From IMG/VR virus record IMGVR_UViG_2703718828_000005: DNA of 9,821 nucleotides; one strand, 5' to 3'. Source of the DNA: a virus. Lineage: Duplodnaviria > Heunggongvirae > Uroviricota > Caudoviricetes. The notes below the pieces were generated by a model. That model saw only the letters and a list, made by a program, of their open reading frames with translations. It had not been told where the DNA came from and did no database searches. The position numbers and the translations under genes are program-made. Positions 1-9,821 of the stretch are shown piece after piece; positions within the stretch are counted from its first letter, which is position 1, and every line of letters begins with the position of its first letter.

Positions 1-1053
1 TTACGGGGTAATGCCAACCGCTGCCGCCACTTTGTCGCCACTTGGCAGCGTTGCCAGAGGATTGAAACGGAGCGCCGTTTCCAGATGATCTGGTGCCAGA
101 TGTGCGTAACGCATAGTCATTTTTATATCGTGGTGTCCGAGAATTTTTTGTAAGGCCAGAATGTTTCCACCCGACATCATGAAGTGCGCCGCAAACGTAT
201 GGCGCAGAACGTGTGTGAGTTGACCGCGAGGGAGCACGATAGACGTTTTTTCCATCACGGATAAAAATTGAAAATAGCAGTCTGTGAAGAAATTGAACCC
301 ATCAAGCGCCATGATCTCTTCGTAAAGCTCTTTACTGATAGGGATACTTCTGTTTTTCTTCCCCTTCGTTCTTACAAAGGTAATTCGGTATTTGGTCACC
401 TGTGAACGAGTAAGATTTACGGCTTCTCGCCAGCGTGCGCCTGTGCTTAAGCATATCTTAACTACCAGTGCTAGAATTGGGTCCTGACGTTTGCAATCAG
501 CCAGTAATTCAACAATCTGCTCATGGGTAAGCCATGCCATCTCTTTTTCTGCGATGGTGAATTTTCGCATGTTCTCCAGTGGGTTCGGATACGACCATTC
601 GCCCAGACGGGATAGTTCGCTAAAAACACTACTTAGATAGCTTTGCTCCAGGTTAATGGTGACCGGGCTTGCTCCTTTCTTCCATTTCTCGCTGAAGTAG
701 ATCTCGCCTGTCAGGCGTTTATCTCGATAGTGGGCAAACATTTTAGAGGTGAGATCGGTTGCAAGAGGATTGCCCAGAGCGTCAACCATCAGCAGCAATT
801 TGTCATAGACATGCTGCCCAGCAGTCAGAGATTTACCATGTAGTTTGAACCATAGCTCAACCACGTCTTTCAGGGTTCGACGATCCACTGATTCGCCCAG
901 CCATGGCTTTGATTCGGTTTCTTCCATAGTGTGACGCTCAAAAGCCAGAGCTTCGCCTTTGGTGGCGAATTGTTTACGCACACGACGCCCACTTCGTCCG
1001 GCGGGGTAACATTCGCAAAGCCATTTCCCTGTGGTGAGTTTTCGTACTGCCAT
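1..1053 (-). CDS. int: Phage integrase, tyrosine recombinase family (P2/186-like)
   Basis: 350-aa product. C-terminal catalytic region reads LRHTFAAHF...GHHDIKMTMRYAHL (R, H-x-x-R, Y signature). Start chosen at ATG 1051-1053 (MAVRKLTTGKW...), preceded by GGAGGG 8 nt upstream. The ORF-track start at 1209 would run through the promoter and RBS. Confidence 0.9.
   Translation of the reverse strand: MAVRKLTTGKWLCECYPAGRSGRRVRKQFATKGEALAFERHTMEETESKPWLGESVDRRTLKDVVELWFKLHGKSLTAGQHVYDKLLLMVDALGNPLATDLTSKMFAHYRDKRLTGEIYFSEKWKKGASPVTINLEQSYLSSVFSELSRLGEWSYPNPLENMRKFTIAEKEMAWLTHEQIVELLADCKRQDPILALVVKICLSTGARWREAVNLTRSQVTKYRITFVRTKGKKNRSIPISKELYEEIMALDGFNFFTDCYFQFLSVMEKTSIVLPRGQLTHVLRHTFAAHFMMSGGNILALQKILGHHDIKMTMRYAHLAPDHLETALRFNPLATLPSGDKVAAAVGITP
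19..40. repeat. attL: Putative attL core (cGCTGCCGCCACTTTGTCGCCA)
   Basis: Matches 6967-6988 at 21 of 22 positions (single C/T difference). Lies at the 3' end of int, where attL is expected for a P2-like prophage. Confidence 0.7.
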
Positions 1054-1077
1054 AAAAAATGCCCTCCAGTAGAGAGC

Positions 1078-1106
1078 ATTTTTACTGTATGTATAACCAG
1101 TGTCAA
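1078..1106 (-). promoter_or_regulatory. Candidate sigma-70 promoter for int (-35 TTGACA at 1106-1101, -10 TAAAAA or AAAAAT around 1084-1078)
   Basis: Minus strand reads TTGACA-ctggttatacatacag-TAAAAAT, then GGAGGG and the int ATG about 25 nt downstream. Perfect -35, 4/6 -10, 16-17 nt spacer. Confidence 0.5.
1083..1102. promoter_or_regulatory. Candidate LexA (SOS) box TACTGTATGTATAACCAGTG
   Basis: 16 of 20 matches to the consensus TACTGTATATATATACAGTA. CTGT-N8-CCAG half-sites as in the uvrB operator. Occupies the spacer of the int promoter and overlaps its -35. Confidence 0.5.
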
Positions 1107-1241
1107 TGTATGAAATCCTACGACCATACATCTCACTGAAGCCATAATGAAGTTGGCTATTCTTTTTGCTATGTGAGCATGTAACTTTTGCGGTTAACCT
1201 GCGGCTCATTTTTATTTTAGACGCAGATATAAAAGCAAAAG

Positions 1242-1433
1242 TTATCGTGAGTTTTTAGTACAGATTTTTTTGGATTTACTAATAGTTCCATCATTGCAAA
1301 CGAATTTGCCATCTGAGGTACAGTGAGAAACACCTCCCTTTTTCCCTGAGCAGGGATAATTTCTAGCATAGGTAGTTAGTGGGTTTAATAACAAAGAACA
1401 TGACAAAACCACAAAAAATACCTTACCAAGCAT
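1242..1433 (-). CDS. Small secreted cysteine-containing basic peptide (hypothetical; candidate moron)
   Basis: 63 aa. N-terminal signal peptide [23 protein letters not shown] with predicted cleavage after TYA. Mature ~40 aa carries 4 Cys and is Lys-rich. Strong RBS GGGAGG 5 nt upstream of the ATG. Region is markedly AT-rich. Sits 15 bp downstream of cI on the same strand. Confidence 0.6.
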
Positions 1434-1448
1434 AGTTTCCTCCCGGTA

Positions 1449-2018
1449 CTATTTAACATACTTGACTGTTAAACTTATAATTTTACCAATTATTTCAATG
1501 TCTTCTATCTTACATTCGAAGGCTCTGTTTCCACCCTCGACGAAGATTCTTCCACCGGGTAAACGAGTAATGTCACGGATCGTTACTTCGCCATCAATAC
1601 TTATTACCCATTTACCATCACGTATATCATCAAATTCTTTATCACAAATAAATTCAGAATTGTTATCTGTGATGACAAAAGGTTTTTTAAACGTAGAGGG
1701 TAAAAATCCCTTATCAAAAATATAAAAACCGTCTTCACGCAAGGCACCATCAGATAATACATATTTAGCAACTTCCATAGTATTTGTATTACCTGAAGTT
1801 TGCTTTGAACCATGTCCGGTTGTGAGCCAATTAAGCGAGGTGCCCGTTTCAAGGGCGCACTGGATTACCCATTCTGCTGGGAATGAGTCACGCATGTAGC
1901 GTGTGGCGAGTGTACTTTTAGAGATTCCTAAATGATCGCACAACGCCTGTCGAGTTTTGAATCCATAAGCTTCTACCATGCGCTCTATAGCGCCTCGTCC
2001 GCCTTTCTCCAAATTCAT
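1449..2018 (-). CDS. cI: Phage 186-type CI immunity repressor
   Basis: 189 aa from ATG 2016-2018 (GGAG 5 nt upstream; the ORF-track GTG at 2024 overlaps the SD). N-terminal HTH region (GISKSTLATRYMRDSFPAEWVIQCALETGTSLNWLTTG). Length is close to 186 CI. No S24 peptidase signature seen in the C-terminal domain. Divergent from apl and cII. Confidence 0.8.
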   Translation of the reverse strand: MNLEKGGRGAIERMVEAYGFKTRQALCDHLGISKSTLATRYMRDSFPAEWVIQCALETGTSLNWLTTGHGSKQTSGNTNTMEVAKYVLSDGALREDGFYIFDKGFLPSTFKKPFVITDNNSEFICDKEFDDIRDGKWVISIDGEVTIRDITRLPGGRIFVEGGNRAFECKIEDIEIIGKIISLTVKYVK

Positions 2019-2042
2019 GGTCACTCCAAGTGAACTTTTATC

Positions 2043-2071
2043 TTGACGATTTCATTGTGCGATCGTATGTT
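2043..2071 (+). promoter_or_regulatory. Candidate early lytic promoter (pR-like): -35 TTGACG 2043-2048, 17-nt spacer, -10 TATGTT 2066-2071
   Basis: Read directly from the cI-apl intergenic region 2019-2143. Flanked by a GTGAAC (2030-2035) / GTTCAC (2078-2083) inverted pair that could be operator half-sites. Confidence 0.4.
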
Positions 2072-2143
2072 TATGGTGTTCACAAAATACAAACGATCCG
2101 TATTCGTCCTGATTAATCATCATTAAACGAGGAATGTTGCATC

Positions 2144-2365
2144 ATGAGACCTAACATTTCAATCACTCTTACCACGCCTCATGTGACTATTGAGCGCTAT
2201 AGCGAGCTGACAGGGCTGTCCATCGATACCATCAATGACATGTTGGCTGACGGACGCCTTATCCGTCACCGTTTGCGCAAAGATAAAAAACGCGAAAAAG
2301 TGATGATCAACATAGCAGCCATGACCGTTGATGCGCTTTCAGAATGCAATCTAAACCTTAATTAG
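2144..2365 (+). CDS. apl: Apl/Cox-family excisionase and transcriptional regulator
   Basis: 73 aa, basic. First gene of the rightward operon, divergent from cI, as for P2 cox and 186 apl. RBS GAGGAA 9 nt upstream. Confidence 0.75.
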
Positions 2366-2397
2366 TTCGATTCTGAAATACATCAGAGGCATTGACC

Positions 2398-2907
2398 ATG
2401 TTTGATTACCAAGTTTCCAAACATCCACATTTTGATGAAGCCTGTCGTGCATTTGCACTGCGCCACAATCTGGTGCAACTGGCAGAACGTGCAGGCATGA
2501 ATGTGCAGATTCTGCGGAACAAGCTGAACCCAGCTCAGCCTCATCTATTAACCGCACCAGAAATCTGGCTGCTTACCGATCTGACTGAAGATTCAACGCT
2601 GGTAGATGGTTTTCTGGCACAGATTCATTGTCTGCCATGTGTACCGATTAATGAGGTGGCAAAAGAGAAACTGCCACATTACGTCATGAGTGCAACCGCA
2701 GAGATCGGGCGTGTTGCTGCAGGTGCGGTATCTGGCGATGTAAAAACCAGTGCAGGTCGTCGTGATGCTATCAGCAGCATTAACTCTGTAACACGACTGA
2801 TGGCGTTGGCTGCTGTTTCATTGCAGGCCCGTTTACAGGCTAACCCTGCGATGGCGAGTGCAGTTGATACCGTGACCGGACTCGGTGCTTCATTCGGTTT
2901 GCTGTGA
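2398..2907 (+). CDS. cII: Phage 186-type CII transcriptional activator (lysogeny establishment)
   Basis: 169 aa from ATG 2398 (AGAGG 8 nt upstream), the same length as 186 CII. Immediately follows apl as in phage 186. Confidence 0.8.
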
Positions 2908-2914
2908 GGTGCTT

Positions 2915-3211
2915 ATGCTGACGAAAGAACCATCATTTGCATCGCTGCTGGTAAAGCAAAGCCCGGCAATGCACTACGGTCACGGCTGGATCATGGGTGA
3001 GGATGGAAAACGCTGGCATCCATGTCATTCACAAGATGAATTGCTGTCTGAATTGACCACGAGGAAACGGAGAAAGTCAAAATGTATGCAGCGGAAAGTG
3101 AAGTGGTTTATCAGTTTTGTTACAGAGGGGAGAGTTATTCAGTACCTGAAGATGATTTGCTCTGTTGTTATCCGTCGTTGTCGGGCGATGGCAGTTACTT
3201 TTTCACGCTAA
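2915..3211 (+). CDS. Hypothetical early protein (3' extent uncertain)
   Basis: ATG 2915 with GAGG 5 nt upstream, 8 nt after the cII stop. The 98-aa frame overlaps the next ORF by 130 nt. The N-terminal ~55 aa look protein-like; the C-terminal part may be a non-coding overlap. Confidence 0.4.
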   Translation: MLTKEPSFASLLVKQSPAMHYGHGWIMGEDGKRWHPCHSQDELLSELTTRKRRKSKCMQRKVKWFISFVTEGRVIQYLKMICSVVIRRCRAMAVTFSR

Positions 3212-3306
3212 AGGATGGGACGTTTTTACGGGGAGAGCAGGTTAAAGAGATGGTACGAAAAAATGTATCTCCCCTTGAGCGTTACCGTAAGAACAAAGAA
3301 CGATAG
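3082..3306 (+). CDS. Hypothetical early protein
   Basis: 74 aa (MYAAESEVVYQFCYRGESYSVPEDD...), balanced acidic composition. GGAG upstream. First ATG after in-frame stops in the -1 frame relative to the 2915 ORF. Confidence 0.5.
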   Translation: MYAAESEVVYQFCYRGESYSVPEDDLLCCYPSLSGDGSYFFTLKDGTFLRGEQVKEMVRKNVSPLERYRKNKER

Positions 3307-3328
3307 GTGCGTTTGGGGGATATGAAGT

Positions 3329-3670
3329 ATGGCAATTAATGGCGCTGCGGCGACTGTTCCATTAAGCCCCGGAGAACGCCTGAATGGACTTAATCACATT
3401 GCGGAATTAAGGGCGAAAGTATTTGGCCTGAATATTGAGTCAGAGCTTGAGCGGTTTATTAAAGATATGCGTGATCCACGGGATATCAATAACGAACAAA
3501 ATAAACGGGCACTGGCTGCCATATTCTTTATGGCAAAAATTCCAGCTGAACGTCATAGCATCAGCATTAATGAGCTGACCACTGACGAAAAGCGGGAGTT
3601 GATTAAAGCAATGAATCATTTTCGTGCAGTGGTGAGCTTATTTCCCAGACGGCTAACCATGCCGAATTAA
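3329..3670 (+). CDS. Hypothetical early protein
   Basis: 113 aa. GGGGGA 8 nt upstream of the ATG. Sits in the position of the small conserved early genes of P2/186-like phages. Confidence 0.6.
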   Translation: MAINGAAATVPLSPGERLNGLNHIAELRAKVFGLNIESELERFIKDMRDPRDINNEQNKRALAAIFFMAKIPAERHSISINELTTDEKRELIKAMNHFRAVVSLFPRRLTMPN

Positions 3671-3737
3671 CCAACCAATGAAATTAATGGCGTAAACCCG
3701 CCGGGCATCCCTTTATCTAAATTCAGGAGAATTGATT

Positions 3738-3971
3738 ATGCGTAATATTGAAACCCTCACGACCAAAACCGGACCGGATGATGCAGGTCTTAATCTTTTA
3801 CTGACAGAGGCTCGTCTGGAAGAACGCCGGGCAAGGGCTGAAGCAATGGCTGCTCGCCTCGATAGCCTGGCGTGTCATATCACCTCCCGCCAGCTAAACC
3901 ACGTCGAAGCGGCAGAACTGCTGCGTGTGACTGCTGAAGCAATCCAGAACGAAGCGCAGGAGATCCACTGA
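3738..3971 (+). CDS. Hypothetical early protein, predicted helical/coiled-coil
   Basis: 77 aa from ATG 3738 (AGGAGA 7 nt upstream). Stop TGA overlaps the next gene's ATG by 1 nt. Confidence 0.6.
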   Translation: MRNIETLTTKTGPDDAGLNLLLTEARLEERRARAEAMAARLDSLACHITSRQLNHVEAAELLRVTAEAIQNEAQEIH

Positions 3972-4198
3972 TGGCTGATGCAATGGATCTCGTACAGCAG
4001 CGCGTTGAAGAAGAACGCCAACGCCATATCCGTGCTGCCCGTGCCAAAACGCCGGGCGTGTCCCGCGTGCTTTGCGTTGAGTGTGAAGCGCCAATTCCGC
4101 CAGCACGCCGCCGTGCCATTCCTGGAGTGCAGCTTTGCATTACCTGCCAGGAAATCGCAGAGCTGAAAGGCAAACATTACAACGGAGGTGCTGTATGA
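3971..4198 (+). CDS. TraR/DksA-family C4 zinc-finger protein
   Basis: 75 aa with CxxC-x17-CxxC (CVEC...CITC). Same position as the TraR-like gene upstream of A in P2-like phages. Confidence 0.8.
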   Translation: MADAMDLVQQRVEEERQRHIRAARAKTPGVSRVLCVECEAPIPPARRRAIPGVQLCITCQEIAELKGKHYNGGAV

Positions 4199-5052
4199 GC
4201 ACCATCCTGAAATGGGCGGGTAATAAAACCGCCATTATGTCCGAACTGAAAAAATACCTTCCTGCTGGCCCGCGACTGGTTGAACCTTTCGCGGGTTCTT
4301 GTGCTGTGATGATGGCGACGGATTACCCCAGCTATCTGGTTGCGGATATTAATCCTGATTTAATCAACCTCTATAAAAAGATTGCCGCTGATTGCGAAGC
4401 GTTTATATCTCGTGCCAAAGTTTTATTTGAGGAAGCAAACAGTGAGCTGGCTTATTACAACATAAGACAGGAGTTTAATTACTCAACTGAAATTACTGAT
4501 TTCATGAAGGCGATATATTTCCTGTATCTCAATCGTCACGGTTACCGTGGTTTATGTCGCTATAACAAGAGCGGGTATTTCAACATTCCCTACGGTAATT
4601 ATAAAAATCCGTATTTCCCTGAAAAAGAAATTCGCGCATTTGCAGAGAAAGCCCAGCGGGCAACGTTTATCTGCGCGAGCTTTGATGAAACGCTGGCGAT
4701 GCTGCAGGTGGGGGATGTGGTGTATTGCGATCCGCCGTATGACGGTACGTTTTCCGGCTATCACACTGATGGTTTCACTGAAGATGACCAGTATCACCTG
4801 GCATCCATTCTTGAACATCGGTCATCAGAAGGACATCCGGTCATTGTTTCTAACAATGACACATCCCTGATTCGTTCGCTGTATCGCAATTTTACTCACC
4901 ACTATATCAAGGCAAAACGCAGCATCGGCGTGTCAGCTGGCGAGGGTAAATCTGCAACAGAAATCATTGCTGTTTCCGGGCCGAGCTGCTGGTTGGGATT
5001 TGATCCTTCGCGTGGCGTGGATAGTTCTGCCGTGTACGGAGTGTGTGTATGA
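4195..5052 (+). CDS. dam: DNA adenine methyltransferase, Dam family (GATC-type N6-adenine MTase)
   Basis: 285 aa from ATG 4195 (GGAGGTG upstream). LKWAGNK N-terminal motif, [15 protein letters not shown] and the catalytic DPPY motif. Clearly similar along its length to E. coli Dam. Start overlaps the upstream stop (ATGA). Confidence 0.9.
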
Positions 5053-6368
5053 GTCATGACGATATGAACAATTGCAGCGGCTTTAACGAGGCCGCCGCAG
5101 CATTTTCATGGAACGGCTCGAAAAAGGCCATTAACCCTTATCTGGACCCGGCGGAAGTTGCGCCGGAGTCTGCACTTTCAAACCTGATCACTCTGTACGC
5201 TGCCGATAACGAGCAGGAACAACTGCGCCGCGAGGCACTGAGTGAGCAGGTCTGGGAGCGTTATTTCTTTAATGAATCCCGTGATCCTGTCCAGCGCGAA
5301 ATGGAGCAGGATAAGCTCATTAGCCGGGCAAAGCTGGCGCATGAGCAGCAGCGTTTTAATCCGGACATGGTCATTCTGGCGGACGTAAACGCCCAGCCTT
5401 CCCATATCAGCAAGCCGCTGATGCAACGTATTGAATACTTCAGCAGCCTGGGCAGGCCAAAGGCTTATTCCCGCTATTTGCGTGAGACGATTAAGCCATG
5501 TCTGGAGCGACTGGATTGTGTACGTGACAGTCAGCTATCTGTTTCTTTCCGTTTTATGGCAAGCCATCAAGGGCTGGAGGGTCTGCTGATCCTGCCTGAA
5601 ATGAGCCAGGATCAGGTGAAACGCCTGTCCACCCTGGTAGCAGCGCATATGAGCATGTGTCTTGAGGACGCTTGTGGTGATTTGTATGCCACCGATGACG
5701 TTAAGCCAGAAGAAATCCGCAAGACATGGGAAAAGGTGGCAGCGGAAACCCTGCGTCTGGATGTAATCCCGCCTGCGTTTGAGAAACTTCGTCGGAAAAG
5801 AAACCGCCGCAAACCAGTGCCCTATGAACTCATCCCGGGTTCGCTGGCGCGTATGTTGTGTGCCGACTGGTGGTATCGGAAATTATGGAAGATGCGTTGC
5901 GAATGGCGGGAAGAGCAGTTGCGTGCTGTCTGCCTGGTCAGCAAAAAAGCATCCCCCTATGTCAGCTATGAAGCCGTGATGCATAAACGTGAGCAGCGCC
6001 GTAAGTCGCTGGAGTTTTTTCGTTCTCATGAACTGGTGAACGAAGACGGCGACACGCTGGATATGGAAGATGTGGTAAACGCCAGCAGCAGCAACCCGGC
6101 GCATCGCCGCAATGAGATGATGGCCTGTGTTAAAGGTCTGGAGCTTATCGCGGAAATGCGCAGTGACTGTGCCGTTTTCTACACTATCACCTGTCCGTCG
6201 CGTTTCCATTCCACGCTCAATAACGGCAGACCAAACCCGACCTGGACAAACGCGACGGTAAGACAAAGTAGCGATTATCTGGTCGGCATGTTTGCTGCAT
6301 TTCGTAAGGCTATGCATAAAGCCGAGTTGCGCTGGTATGGCGTGCGGGTACCTGGTGGGGACGGATGA
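5049..6368 (+). pseudogene. A: Replication initiation endonuclease (P2 gpA family), truncated at about codon 435
   Basis: N-terminal region includes ITCPSRFH and ends ...ELRWYGVRV, then runs into an unrelated PGGDG-stop tail. The HUH histidines and catalytic tyrosines that normally follow are absent. Start ATG 5049 overlaps the dam stop. Confidence 0.8.
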
Positions 6369-6657
6369 AAACGTGCTGGTACTTAATCGCACTTATGCCA
6401 ACCGGAGCAACGCCGAACGAGCGGCAAAAATGCAGTGGGAACGCCTGCAACGCGGTGTTGCGTCATTCTCGCTACAACTGGCGGAAGGGCGGGCAGATCT
6501 TTACACGGAAATGCCTGTAAAAGTCAGTGGTTTTAAACAGCCGATAGATGATGCGGAATGGACCATTACCACCCTGACGCATACTGTCAGCCCGGATAAC
6601 GGTTTTACGACCAGTCTGGAGCTTGAAGTGAGGATTGATGATTTCGAAATGGAATGA
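6351..6657 (+). pseudogene. D: C-terminal fragment of tail gene D (P2 gpD family)
   Basis: Frame +1 relative to A encodes ...LVLNRTYANRSNAERAAKMQWERLQRG...SGFKQPIDDAEWTITTLTHTVSPDNGFTTSLELEVRIDDFEME, recognised as a gpD C-terminus. No own RBS or 5' portion. Lies directly upstream of ogr as in P2. Confidence 0.7.
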
Positions 6658-6747
6658 TTCTTCGCAATGGAGAACTTTTAAGTTTGCAAAATGGAATAAT
6701 GCGGTATCATTGTTGTGAATTTAGCAAAAATGGGGAGAACTCGAAAA

Positions 6748-6966
6748 ATGATGATTTGCCCACTGTGTGGAAGTGCCGCCCATACTCGCAGCAGTTTTCA
6801 GGTATCTTCATTGACCAAAGAGCGTTACAACCAGTGCCAGAACATTAACTGCAGCCATACTTTTGTTACCCATGAAACTTTTGTTCGTTCGATTGCAACG
6901 CCAAAAGAGTCAAATCCGGTTCAGCCGCATCCAATGAAATCAGGGCAGGTGGCGCTCTCTCTTTGA
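6748..6966 (+). CDS. ogr: Ogr/B-family zinc-finger late-gene transcriptional activator
   Basis: 72 aa from ATG 6748 (MMICPLCGSAAHTRS...KERYNQCQNINCSHTF...). CxxC...CxxxxC finger and strong resemblance to P2 Ogr and 186 B. Last phage gene before attR. Confidence 0.85.
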   Translation: MMICPLCGSAAHTRSSFQVSSLTKERYNQCQNINCSHTFVTHETFVRSIATPKESNPVQPHPMKSGQVALSL

Positions 6967-7043: not shown

Positions 7044-7089
7044 AACAAAAAACCCATCAACCTTGAACCGAAATGGCGGGGTTGATGGG
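7044..7089 (-). terminator. Candidate intrinsic terminator downstream of ybjL
   Basis: Perfect 10-bp inverted repeat CCCATCAACC (7053-7062) / GGTTGATGGG (7080-7089) followed on the minus strand by TTTTTTGTT (7052-7044). The loop is long (17 nt, ~11 with G-U pairs). Confidence 0.35.
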
Positions 7090-7201
7090 CTCCACAAAAT
7101 GGGGACATCAAAGAAAAGCAGTGGCACTAATTAAGACTGATGCCCTGCGGAAAAGTTCTGCGGTTGTGCAAAAAAATTTCATTTTCAGGGCAACTTCAGT
7201 T

Positions 7202-8887
7202 TTATCCTAATCCTGGCCATACCATGACGATGATTGTCCCTGCCAGCGTCAGCAGGACGTTGGCGATTGCATAGGTGCCCGCATAGCCCAGCGCCGGGAT
7301 GTTACTGCGAGCTGTATCACTGATGATCTCCATTGCCGGCGCGCAGGTACGTGCGCCCATCATTGCGCCGAACAACAGCGCGCGGTTCATTCGCAATACA
7401 TAAGCACCGAACAAGAAACAGATAACCACGGGCACCAGACTGACAATCAATCCGGCAATCAACATCTGACCGCCAATCGCGCCCAGGCCGTTATTAATAC
7501 CGCTACCGGCGCTCAGACCAACGCCTGCCATAAACACCATCAAGCCGAACTCTTTCACCATGCTTAATGCACCCTGCGGAATGTAACCGAAGGTCGGGTG
7601 GTTAGCACGCATAAAGCCCAGCATAATTCCGGCGAATAACAACCCGGCAGCGTTCCCCATGCCGAAACTGAATGTGCTGAACTGGAAGGTGATCATCCCG
7701 ATCATCAGCCCAATAACAAAGAAGGCGCAGAATGCCAGCAGGTCAGTGACCTGGCTGTGAATCGAGATAAAGCCGATGCGATCGGCGATGGTTTTTACGC
7801 GGCGGGCATCGCCGCTGACTTGTAAAACGTCACCTTTGTTAAGCACGACGTTGTCATCTATCGGCATCTCAATCTGGCTACGAATGACGCGGTTAAGGAA
7901 GCAACCGTGATCGGTCAACTTCAGTTGTGCGAGACGTTTACCTACAGCGTTATGGTTTTTAACGACCACTTCTTCAGTGACGATACGCATGTCGAGAAGG
8001 TCACGATCGAAAACTTCTTTACCGTTACGGAAGCTGGGATCGAGTCGGGCATGGGCGTCGGGATAGCCTACCAACGCTATTTCATCGCCCATTTGTAGCA
8101 CGGCATCACCGTCTGGATTTGCCAGAATCCCGTTACGTCGAATACGTTCAATGTAGCAGCCGGTTTGTCGATAAATACCCAGTTCACGCAGATTTTTGCC
8201 GTCGGTCCAGGCCACCAGTTCCGGGCCGACGCGATAGGCGCGGATCACCGGTAAATAAACCTTACGGTTGGCATCAGTGTCCAGGCCACGTTCGCGGGCG
8301 ATTTGCTGGGCGCTGGTCTGTAAGTCCTGATGCTGCAATTTCGGCAAGTAACGCGCACCAACAATCAAACTCACCAGACCGATTAAATAGGTTAAGGCAT
8401 ACCCGAGGCTCAGATTATCCAGTGCCAGTGAGAGCTGCCTGCTTTCCATGCCGGAATGACGCAGTGTATCGCCAGCACCGACCAGAACCGGTGTCGACGT
8501 CATAGAGCCTGCTAACATACCGGCCGTCAGGCCAATATCCCAGCCAAACAGCTTACCTAACCCTAAGGCGATCACCAGCGCACTGCCAACCATCACCAGT
8601 GCTAACATTAGGTAATTTTTCCCATCGCGAAAAAAAATGGAAAAAAAGTTCGGTCCGGCTTCGACCCCGACGCAGAAAATAAACAGCATAAAGCCAAGAT
8701 TAAGCGCATCGGTGTTAATGCTGAAATGTTGTTGGCCTAATAACAGCGATACGACTAAAACGCCAATGGAATTACCCAGTTGGATCGAACCAAGTCGTAA
8801 CTTTCCGAGACATAGCCCAAGCGCGAGGACCACAAATAATAACAGAATGTAATTCCCATTTAACAATTCGGCGACGTTTATATTCAC
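7202..8887 (-). CDS. ybjL: YbjL-type putative transporter (AAE/YidE-YbjL family, two transmembrane domains flanking a cytoplasmic regulatory region)
   Basis: 561 aa. N-terminus [25 protein letters not shown]... recognised as E. coli YbjL. Conserved synteny with ybjM and grxA. Start appears to be GTG with a weak SD. Confidence 0.85.
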
Positions 8888-9156
8888 GGAGGCTAACTTC
8901 TTGTTTACTAGTAAGCTGTTGAAAGAAATGGTAATTTACGATAATGTTTTTTACCAGAATTCAGGGCGCAGATTCATTCAGCGCACCTAAACGATAGTAA
9001 AGTAACAATATATTTTACTAGTGTAATCACATTAGGTATCAACGGCTATATGAATTGCGTTGGCCTATATTAGCATGGAATGCGAAGCGGCTTTATCTTA
9101 CTGAACGCCACACTGGCGAAAAATGTGTTCGATAGACGCAGTGTCAGGAGGAACGA

Positions 9157-9534
9157 GTGAAACATAAACAACGTTGGGCGGGGGCAATCTGCTGTTTTGT
9201 CCTCTTCATTGTGGTGTGCCTTTTTCTGGCGACGCACATGAAAGGCGCTTTTCGGGCTGCCGGGCATCCTGAAATCGGCTTGCTATTTTTCATTCTTCCT
9301 GGAGCAGTCGCCAGCTTCTTTTCACAGCGTAGAGAAGTCCTGAAACCTCTGTTTGGCGCAATGCTGGCGGCACCCTGTTCGATGCTCATTATGCGGCTGT
9401 TTTTTTCACCGACGCGCTCATTCTGGCAAGAGCTGGCATGGTTACTAAGCGCGGTGTTCTGGTGTGCGCTGGGGGCACTGTGTTTCTTATTTATCAGTAG
9501 TTTGTTTAAACCACAGCACAGAAAAAATCAGTAA
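9157..9534 (+). CDS. ybjM: Inner membrane protein YbjM
   Basis: 125 aa, multiple hydrophobic segments. GTG start with AGGAGG 5 nt upstream. Position between ybjL and grxA as in E. coli. Confidence 0.8.
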   Translation: MKHKQRWAGAICCFVLFIVVCLFLATHMKGAFRAAGHPEIGLLFFILPGAVASFFSQRREVLKPLFGAMLAAPCSMLIMRLFFSPTRSFWQELAWLLSAVFWCALGALCFLFISSLFKPQHRKNQ

Positions 9535-9554
9535 AGCCCTCAACGCGAGGGCTT
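9534..9554 (-). terminator. Intrinsic terminator between convergent ybjM and grxA
   Basis: 8-bp stem AAGCCCTC / GAGGGCTT with 5-nt loop. On the minus strand it is followed by a U-tract (ACTGATTTTTT), placing it just downstream of the grxA stop. Confidence 0.55.
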
Positions 9555-9563
9555 GTCAGACGA

Positions 9564-9821
9564 TCAGGCGTCCAGATTTTCTTTCACCCATGCAGCAAAA
9601 TCGGTATAGCCGCCGATATGTTGCTGATCGACAAAAATCTGCGGCACGGTTTCTACGGGTTTACCTGCCTTTTGTTGTAGATCTTCTTTAGTGATCCCTT
9701 CCGCACGAATATCTACATACTGATACTGAAAATCATCGCGTTCATTGCTCAATTTCTCAGCCAGATCTTTTGCACGCACACAGTAAGGGCAACCCGAACG
9801 ACCAAAAATAACGGTTTGCAT
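9564..9821 (-). CDS. grxA: Glutaredoxin 1
   Basis: 85 aa with the CPYC active site. Sequence recognised as E. coli GrxA along its whole length. Start codon is at the window edge. Confidence 0.95.
   Translation of the reverse strand: MQTVIFGRSGCPYCVRAKDLAEKLSNERDDFQYQYVDIRAEGITKEDLQQKAGKPVETVPQIFVDQQHIGGYTDFAAWVKENLDA

Follow-up and report, generated by a model that had tools for sequence, protein, structure and literature searches.

The closest described counterpart of the locus considered here is the immunity switch of coliphage 186 (Eganvirus). In 186, the repressor CI is inactivated by the Tum antirepressor and not through self-cleavage (PMC3121763, PMC7708051), and in its relatives PSP3 and Fels-2 tum is split, with an antirepressor gene upstream and a DinI homologue downstream (PMC3121763). 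Antirepressors from other prophages can also act in trans (PMC3121763). Single-copy chromosomal fragments of the 186 switch have been made UV-responsive by integrating a p95-tum module alongside (PMC7708051). Our subject is a related switch in a stretch of 9,821 nt (IMG/VR record IMGVR_UViG_2703718828_000005; the window), of which positions 1 to ~7057 are prophage remnant and 7202-9821 are E. coli chromosome carrying the host genes ybjL, ybjM and grxA. The remnant is a P2/186-like (Peduoviridae) element of ~7 kb, sited at the terminator of the small RNA (sRNA) gene rybB. As a defective prophage it is ordinary: it formed recently and belongs to a known family, and its immunity type is undescribed in isolated phage. 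We think it likely that it carries the wild-type switch of a 186-family phage with its own immunity type, held in the lysogenic state within a young deletion remnant; that immunity to phages sharing its operators is a by-product; and that the recency of the deletion is the main reason why the switch is intact.

The switch lies at positions 1449-2907 and, judged by its sequence, is complete and of the 186 type, comprising cI, convergent pR and pL promoters, apl, cII and a CII site at pE. The cI gene (1449-2018, minus strand) encodes a 186-type immunity repressor of 189 aa. Pfam matches above cut-off were obtained to Phage_CI_repr (PF07022, 2.8e-33, residues 11-74) and to Phage_CI_C, the C-terminal oligomerisation domain of 186 CI (PF16452, 5.4e-29, residues 85-183), and the protein aligned over its full length with the solved 186 CI structure 2FJR (3.3e-31). 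Identity to 186 CI is 32%. The divergent gene apl (2144-2365, plus strand) is the first of the pR operon and encodes a 73-aa excisionase and repressor of the Apl/Cox family. It matched PHROG 575 ('Cox-like excisionase and repressor') over its full length (6.1e-31) and had no match in the Pfam search, and its similarity to 186 Apl by BLAST was weak (20 aa, E 1e-4). The lysogeny-establishment activator gene cII (2398-2907, plus strand) matched Phage_CP76 (PF06892, 3.4e-42), and its product is 69% identical to 186 CII. A CII-binding inverted repeat at pE, ATGTTTG-N12-CAAACAT (2399-2424), lies at the 5' end of cII, overlapping the start, and is kept relative to the annotated 186 CII site (23435-23462). 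According to RefSeq annotation and recorded gene calls, cI starts at ATG 2018 rather than GTG 2024 and cII at ATG 2398 rather than TTG 2392. With these two start codons corrected, the Pfam, PHROG and 2FJR matches agree with the first-pass annotation of this DNA, which had described cI, apl and cII as intact.

Comparison with other prophages indicates that this is not a decayed copy. CI is identical (100%, protein) to the CI of the QDFD216 element, and CI, Apl, CII and Int have the same protein accessions in the SFE8 prophage, which occupies the same site, spans 34 kb and appears to be complete. Each of the exact CI, Apl and CII proteins is found on at least 1000 public contigs. Since the CI, Apl and CII alleles are shared with an apparently complete prophage, the switch is best regarded as wild type. 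The 189-aa CI sequence, read directly, contains no Ala-Gly or Cys-Gly dipeptide, and its match to Peptidase_S24 is both below threshold (16.9 bits, cut-off 23.3) and partial (profile positions 56-116 only). On its sequence, CI is thus a repressor without a self-cleavage site of the LexA/lambda type, as had been claimed.

The early lytic promoter pR (2043-2071, plus strand) consists of TTGACG (2043-2048), a 17-nt spacer and TATGTT (2066-2071). A bare-consensus promoter scan of 2.2 kb returned two promoter-like sites where 4.1 were expected, and pR was not significant by that measure. This promoter, which had been proposed earlier as plausible, is therefore unremarkable by consensus, yet its hexamers align with the annotated -35 and -10 of 186 pR (alignment A1, read against the NC_001317 annotation), and the TTGAC of its -35 is conserved in heteroimmune E. 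coli relatives. The putative lysogenic promoter pL (2133-2162, minus strand) has a -35 of TTGAAA (2162-2157), a 17-nt spacer and a -10 of CAACAT (2139-2134). Its hexamers align with those annotated for 186 pL in the same alignment, in columns conserved in E. coli relatives; the -10 is weak, and the consensus scan missed it. We assign pL by positional homology, and its activity is a prediction. The two promoters are convergent (face-to-face) between cI and apl.

The immunity type appears to be distinct from that of 186. Matches to the 186 operator TTCAC-N5-GTGAA (up to two mismatches) numbered four in the window against 4.9 expected, one of them near pR. The lack of enrichment, together with the 32% identity of the two repressors, led us to reject the 186 immunity type. 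Given this difference, immunity would not extend to 186 itself. The superinfection immunity proposed in the first-pass annotation is to be expected against phages of the same type, by homology with 186, but its extension to 186-like phages in general was drawn too widely. A candidate CI operator element, GTGAACTTTTA (2030-2040, plus strand), is found just upstream of the pR -35, with sister copies at 1910-1920 in cI and at 6670-6680 in the ogr promoter. The motif GNGNACTTTTA, which was defined after these sites had been seen, has three exact matches in the 36.5-kb SFE8 locus against 0.24 expected, and none of 100 shuffles reached three. In SFE8 one match directly precedes the pR -35, one lies 120 bp into cI and one is in the ogr promoter. 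This arrangement suggests candidate operators in a layout resembling that of 186, whose CI sites lie at pR, pB and the flanking positions. When the switch was scanned for repeats and palindromes, many short pairs came up but no operator set could be defined from them, and they were set aside. They included two perfect 10-nt inverted matches between the pR/pL region and cI (2055-2064/1934-1943 and 2092-2101/1575-1584), which may be chance matches or flanking repressor sites; GATC occurs in both, and among the genes of the element is one for a Dam methylase.

The immunity region is carried, at 80% coverage or more, by 640 of 5,426 complete E. coli genomes (~12%). A phage genome collection held no isolate with this CI type, the best match having 56% amino-acid identity. 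The immunity type is thus frequent in E. coli prophages, with no representative among sequenced phage isolates. Early genes that flank it are ~94-95% identical to those of Escherichia phage vB_EcoM-813R9 and of Klebsiella phages KP12 and 4LV2017; in this family, immunity cassettes are exchanged as mosaic units.

The loss of replication and morphogenesis functions, also noted earlier, was traced to a single deletion, measuring 27,396 bp when compared with the SFE8 prophage. At the resulting A'-'D junction (position 6349, mapped against SFE8), replication gene A is broken at ~nt 1307 of 2415 and runs into tail gene D, of which the final 309 nt are left. The truncated A (5049-6349, plus strand) retains approximately the first 435 of 804 codons and matches Pfam Phage_GPA over profile positions 1-243 of 321; BLAST against intact A stops at 6349. 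The 3' remnant of D (6350-6657, plus strand) gives a weak match to Phage_GPD. Along with the 3' part of A and a tum-like operon, the deleted segment contained every gene for heads, tails and lysis. By analogy with 186, in which the 3' part of A contains ori, the origin and the cos-bearing segment would have been removed as well. A deletion mechanism based on microhomology or linked to ori was rejected, as the junction has only 2 nt of microhomology and independent junctions differ. We also rejected a satellite or phage-inducible chromosomal island (PICI)-like element, since this is a simple deletion derivative of a full prophage that has lost the cos segment (placed as in 186).

In SFE8, QDFD216, BL21 and PSJ-29, the tum-like operon, consisting of a 62-aa open reading frame (ORF) and a DinI-like ORF, is found just downstream of A. 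The SFE8 copy is preceded by a perfect LexA box, CTGTAAATATAAACAG (CTGT-N8-ACAG), read in the SFE8 sequence. In the window, tblastn found no homologue of Tum, DinI, Orf97 or Orf69 (best E 0.2), confirming that the element has no such antirepressor, and LexA boxes were matched at chance level only. Because the tum-like operon lies in the deleted segment, the repressor should be SOS-blind and permanently on; on the analogy with 186, a locked repressor without induction input is well supported. The earlier description of CI as constitutively active therefore holds with respect to Tum and the SOS response, by homology, but it ignores antirepressors supplied in trans (PMC3121763).

Based on these observations and on the behavior of 186, we predict that CI made from a weak pL binds to operators covering pR, and probably at the ogr promoter as well. 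Repression of pR would silence the rightward operon, from apl, cII and fil onward to the truncated A, and the halting of convergent pR transcription would sustain CI synthesis from pL. One illegitimate deletion of 27.4 kb, in taking the tum-like operon, the 3' part of A, the cos segment and the late genes, would have left the switch stuck in the lysogenic state, unresponsive to SOS unless a compatible antirepressor arrived from another element. Repressor immunity against incoming phages with the same operators would follow as a by-product. Loss of cI only would lead to expression of Fil and early proteins, or to excision by Int and Apl, and such variants would vanish from view.

Copies of the same remnant bear on how long the switch has survived the deletion. 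The same A'-'D junction was found in one of the 5,426 complete genomes, AH21, and the exact A'-'D fusion protein was indexed in 41 blocks of an assembly collection, from which 24 contigs were read. Within the remnant, the displayed same-junction copies differ from the window by zero or one single-nucleotide polymorphism (SNP); one copy carries the CI change E172K. All three displayed same-junction contigs that cover cI have it at full length, and a further 20 are reported to have mostly the same neighbouring proteins. With 0-1 SNP among copies, an intact 570-bp cI is expected under neutrality. In AH21 (L002 4362-5494), an ISKpn26/IS5-family element replaces window positions 1367-3335, the rest being 100% identical to the window. 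This single event removed cI, pR, pL, apl, cII, fil and orf74 together, which means that the switch is dispensable in at least one background.

The strength of selection on cI, for which a dN/dS comparison had been proposed, was compared across related loci as the ratio of nonsynonymous to synonymous polymorphism (pN/pS). The value for cI was 0.11, inside the range of 0.025-0.21 obtained for int, apl, cII, DUF5347, dam and ogr in this small, biased sample. This measure cannot separate host-level from phage-level selection, as the differences predate the deletions and arose in working phages, and as the values are similar for every gene. The comparative data show no sign that the host selects for the switch: cI was not more constrained than its neighbours, nor was long-term vertical retention after inactivation found, the two marks by which domestication would be recognized. 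Taken together, the near-identity of the copies, the loss in AH21 and the unremarkable pN/pS of cI fail to support the proposal in the first-pass annotation that the switch has been retained as a selected host defence module.

The trio int, cI and apl persists in at least ten elements at the rybB site that arose by independent deletion: L9, strain 3908, PSJ-29, AHB21, KSC64, BL21(DE3), QDFD216, D97-1, P15-25 and the window element itself. On the left, their deletions begin at points that vary from immediately past apl to somewhere beyond A, and ogr is kept in nine of the ten; the P15-25 locus examined stops short of the ogr position. The deletions in the window, L9 and strain 3908 all end inside D, at different junctions. 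All ten remnants were found with queries containing cI, and the sample is accordingly biased toward cI. The pattern fits selection for immunity and is equally compatible with survivorship or search bias. One could go further and see in the repeated int-cI-apl plus ogr architecture the convergent domestication of an SOS-blind immunity cassette, stripped through selection on E. coli lineages of its lethal and inducible parts (A, tum, lysis genes), in which a permanently active CI serves as a narrow-spectrum defence; we regard this as improbable.

With this in mind, we considered why cI has stayed intact. If the host kept it by purifying selection for immunity to same-type phages, as a domesticated defence module, there would be no shortage of targets, given that ~12% of complete E. 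coli genomes carry the immunity region. All ten independently deleted remnants at the rybB site would fit, as would the full-length cI in the displayed same-junction contigs that cover it. We nevertheless find this explanation unlikely. With 0-1 SNP between copies, intactness is uninformative on selection, and the pN/pS of cI lies within the range of neighbours that have no immunity role. AH21 lacks the entire switch, one copy has an altered CI (E172K), the remnant sample is biased to cI-bearing elements, and a PADLOC scan of ten remnant proteins matched no defence family other than an orphan methylase, Dam (orphan and type II methyltransferase models). Alternatively, cI may be kept to silence its neighbours, in a form of addiction. 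Loss of cI only would then be harmful, turning pR on and with it Fil, the early proteins and Apl, and allowing Apl and Int to excise a circle that cannot replicate, so that only joint deletions of cI and pR survive. The RacR repressor, which is essential in E. coli K-12 and represses the toxic ydaS and ydaT (PMC5700373, PMC5700377), provides a precedent for a cryptic-prophage repressor kept in this way. In the window element, fil and six further early ORFs persist downstream of pR, and int, apl and both att cores are intact. The 186 record notes of Fil that 'overexpression blocks cell division', and the one loss seen, in AH21, took cI, pR, pL, apl, cII, fil and orf74 at once. That is, however, a single loss event, and toxicity of the window Fil homologue in single copy is presumed. 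Moreover, D97-1 keeps cI and apl though cII, fil and the remaining pR operon are gone, which indicates that silencing of fil is not the whole story there. Silencing of fil and blocking of excision account for the retention of cI equally as well as defence does, and we consider such an addiction possible, if somewhat doubtful.

A further possibility is that the switch, for all its intact sequence, is dead or irrelevant in function, with cI silent or CI giving no measurable immunity, and that it is neutral DNA awaiting decay. The weakness of pL by consensus and its absence from the scan would agree with this, as would the lack of a sequenced phage isolate with this CI type (best 56% amino-acid identity); expression of cI is itself a presumption. 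On the other hand, the proteins and promoter regions are identical or nearly so to those of an apparently complete prophage. According to the 186 annotation, pL is likewise weak there and depends on repression of pR by CI, and a silent cI would leave pR on, which is expected to be costly. We judge a dead switch to be very unlikely. The explanation that we prefer, a wild-type switch locked by a recent deletion and intact mainly through recency, has its own weak points, and four considerations count against it. The survival of cI in at least ten independent remnants could mean real selection rather than survivorship, although the sample is biased. The argument from recency rests on SNP counts, not on a dated tree. 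The activity of pL and the level of CI are assumptions, and the operators of this CI type depend on a motif picked after the sites had been seen.

The locus documents a natural 186-type switch without tum and with a distinct immunity type, and it has little import beyond annotation. If the defence explanation were true, it would add one more case to the known idea that defective prophages confer repressor immunity. More usefully, the locus warns against taking a repressor that is intact in a young remnant as evidence of domestication, since recency and the harm of losing the repressor only would predict the same picture.

The tyrosine integrase gene (1-1053, minus strand) is the last gene of the leftward lysogenic (pL/pE) operon. 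Window positions 1-1366 are 100% identical to AH21, in which int is annotated as WP_000290950.1, an accession also present in the SFE8 prophage; Int shares 56% identity with its 186 counterpart. A LexA-box-like sequence, CTGTATGTATAACCAG (CTG-N10-CAG, 1085-1100), of a kind matched in the window at chance level, lies shortly before the int start. Between int and cI lies a 63-aa ORF of the YdcA family (1242-1433, minus strand; PHROG 6000, 1.9e-34; Pfam YdcA in the gene calls), in a stretch of low GC (~0.35), which is probably cargo co-transcribed with cI. This slot is variable in relatives, where it holds P-loop/KAP NTPases, a pair of AAA ATPases or a second, 307-aa CI-like gene (compared at L006 1875-3608, L007 1333-2860 and L008 1340-3806), and appears to be a hotspot for defence genes or other accessory functions.

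Downstream of cII and under pR is a homologue of fil (2915-3211, plus strand), of the cell-division inhibitor family (Pfam Phage_186_Fil, 1.8e-23), with 60% identity to 186 Fil. Its 3' part is overlapped in another frame by the 74-aa orf74 (3082-3306, plus strand; PHROG 4312, 7e-53). Of the two overlapping ORFs, fil is the one annotated by RefSeq, and the 74-aa ORF the one annotated by the other gene caller; the Fil domain lies at roughly nt 2927-3091, and fil may in reality lack its long C-terminal tail. The rest of the early operon (3329-5052, plus strand) encodes DUF5347, DUF2732, a TraR/DksA zinc-finger protein and the Dam methylase, by Pfam and in agreement with RefSeq annotation of relatives. 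At the other side of the deletion, the late-gene activator gene ogr/B (6748-6966, plus strand) is intact; its product carries the annotation of an Ogr/Delta zinc-finger protein and shares 54% identity with 186 B. A candidate CI site and a TATCAT -10 (6705-6710) lie upstream of the gene; in 186, according to the annotation of its record, CI represses pB.

The element ends at rybB (7044-7122, minus strand; Rfam RybB, 105 bits), which was the sole match in an Rfam scan of the window and lies outside the element. A 14-bp direct repeat at the rybB 3' end, AACAAAAAACCCAT, forms the attR core (7044-7057). The same repeat borders the remnant on both sides in loci L011, L012 and AH21, and in contigs with 99.99% identity to the window, its attL copy is found 88 bp before window position 1. 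With copies at both ends, the element is still bounded by attL and attR, ~7.1 kb apart. The prophage family integrates in the 3' end (terminator) of rybB, and the gene is left intact at attR. One metagenome contig (L013) carries a remnant 100% identical to the window yet differs at 31 positions in ybjL/ybjM/grxA, through either recombination in the flank or chimeric assembly.

Set against the 186 switch, the window element has the same gene order and orientation, with fil following cII and B/ogr at the far end beside att. Its CI has the same two domains and aligns with 2FJR over the whole length, its CII is 69% identical and retains the inverted-repeat site, and its pR and pL hexamers are positionally homologous. 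Complete relatives of the element also carry a tum-like operon with a LexA box downstream of A. In contrast, its CI is only 32% identical to that of 186, the 186 operator ATTCAC-N5-GTGAAT is not enriched, and its Apl-like protein has 73 aa instead of 87 and is barely similar by BLAST. Unlike 186, it has a YdcA-family gene between cI and int, and it is attached at the rybB terminator, whereas 186 uses ileY. The tum of its relatives is split into the 62-aa ORF and the DinI-like ORF, as in PSP3 and Fels-2. The window element itself has no tum, no 3' part of A (the ori region, by analogy), no cos and no late genes.

Among defective prophages, the RacR/YdaS-YdaT system of Rac and the DicA/DicB system of Qin in K-12 are similar in that a repressor sits beside a divergent operon with an inhibitor of growth or division, which in the window is fil. 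In the window as in these systems, loss of the repressor only would be expected to be harmful. They differ in family (lambdoid rather than 186-type) and in age, Rac and Qin being old and widespread and the window remnant very young. Another similar element is the defective prophage of E. coli B/BL21(DE3), which occupies the same rcdA-rybB site and cannot replicate, a deletion having fused cII to A. Its immunity region (the YdcA-family ORF, cI, apl and the 5' part of cII) has 95.4% nucleotide identity over 90% of the query. The BL21(DE3) element differs in what was deleted: the stretch running from the 3' end of cII into the 5' part of A is gone, but a retron, the tum-like operon and some of the late region remain; the window element, conversely, keeps cII through A' and has lost tum and all late genes. 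The retron (a St85-family reverse transcriptase and an effector; L005 13218-15266) is situated between the tum-like operon and the portal gene.

Finally, the remnant resembles the synthetic 186 switch constructs of Shearwin and Dodd (PMC7708051), in which cI-pL/pR-apl-cII is likewise placed in the chromosome. Those constructs are engineered, carry reporters and are of the 186 immunity type, whereas the remnant also keeps int, fil, other early genes and ogr. With these differences, the remnant is a natural counterpart of such a construct without its p95-tum module.

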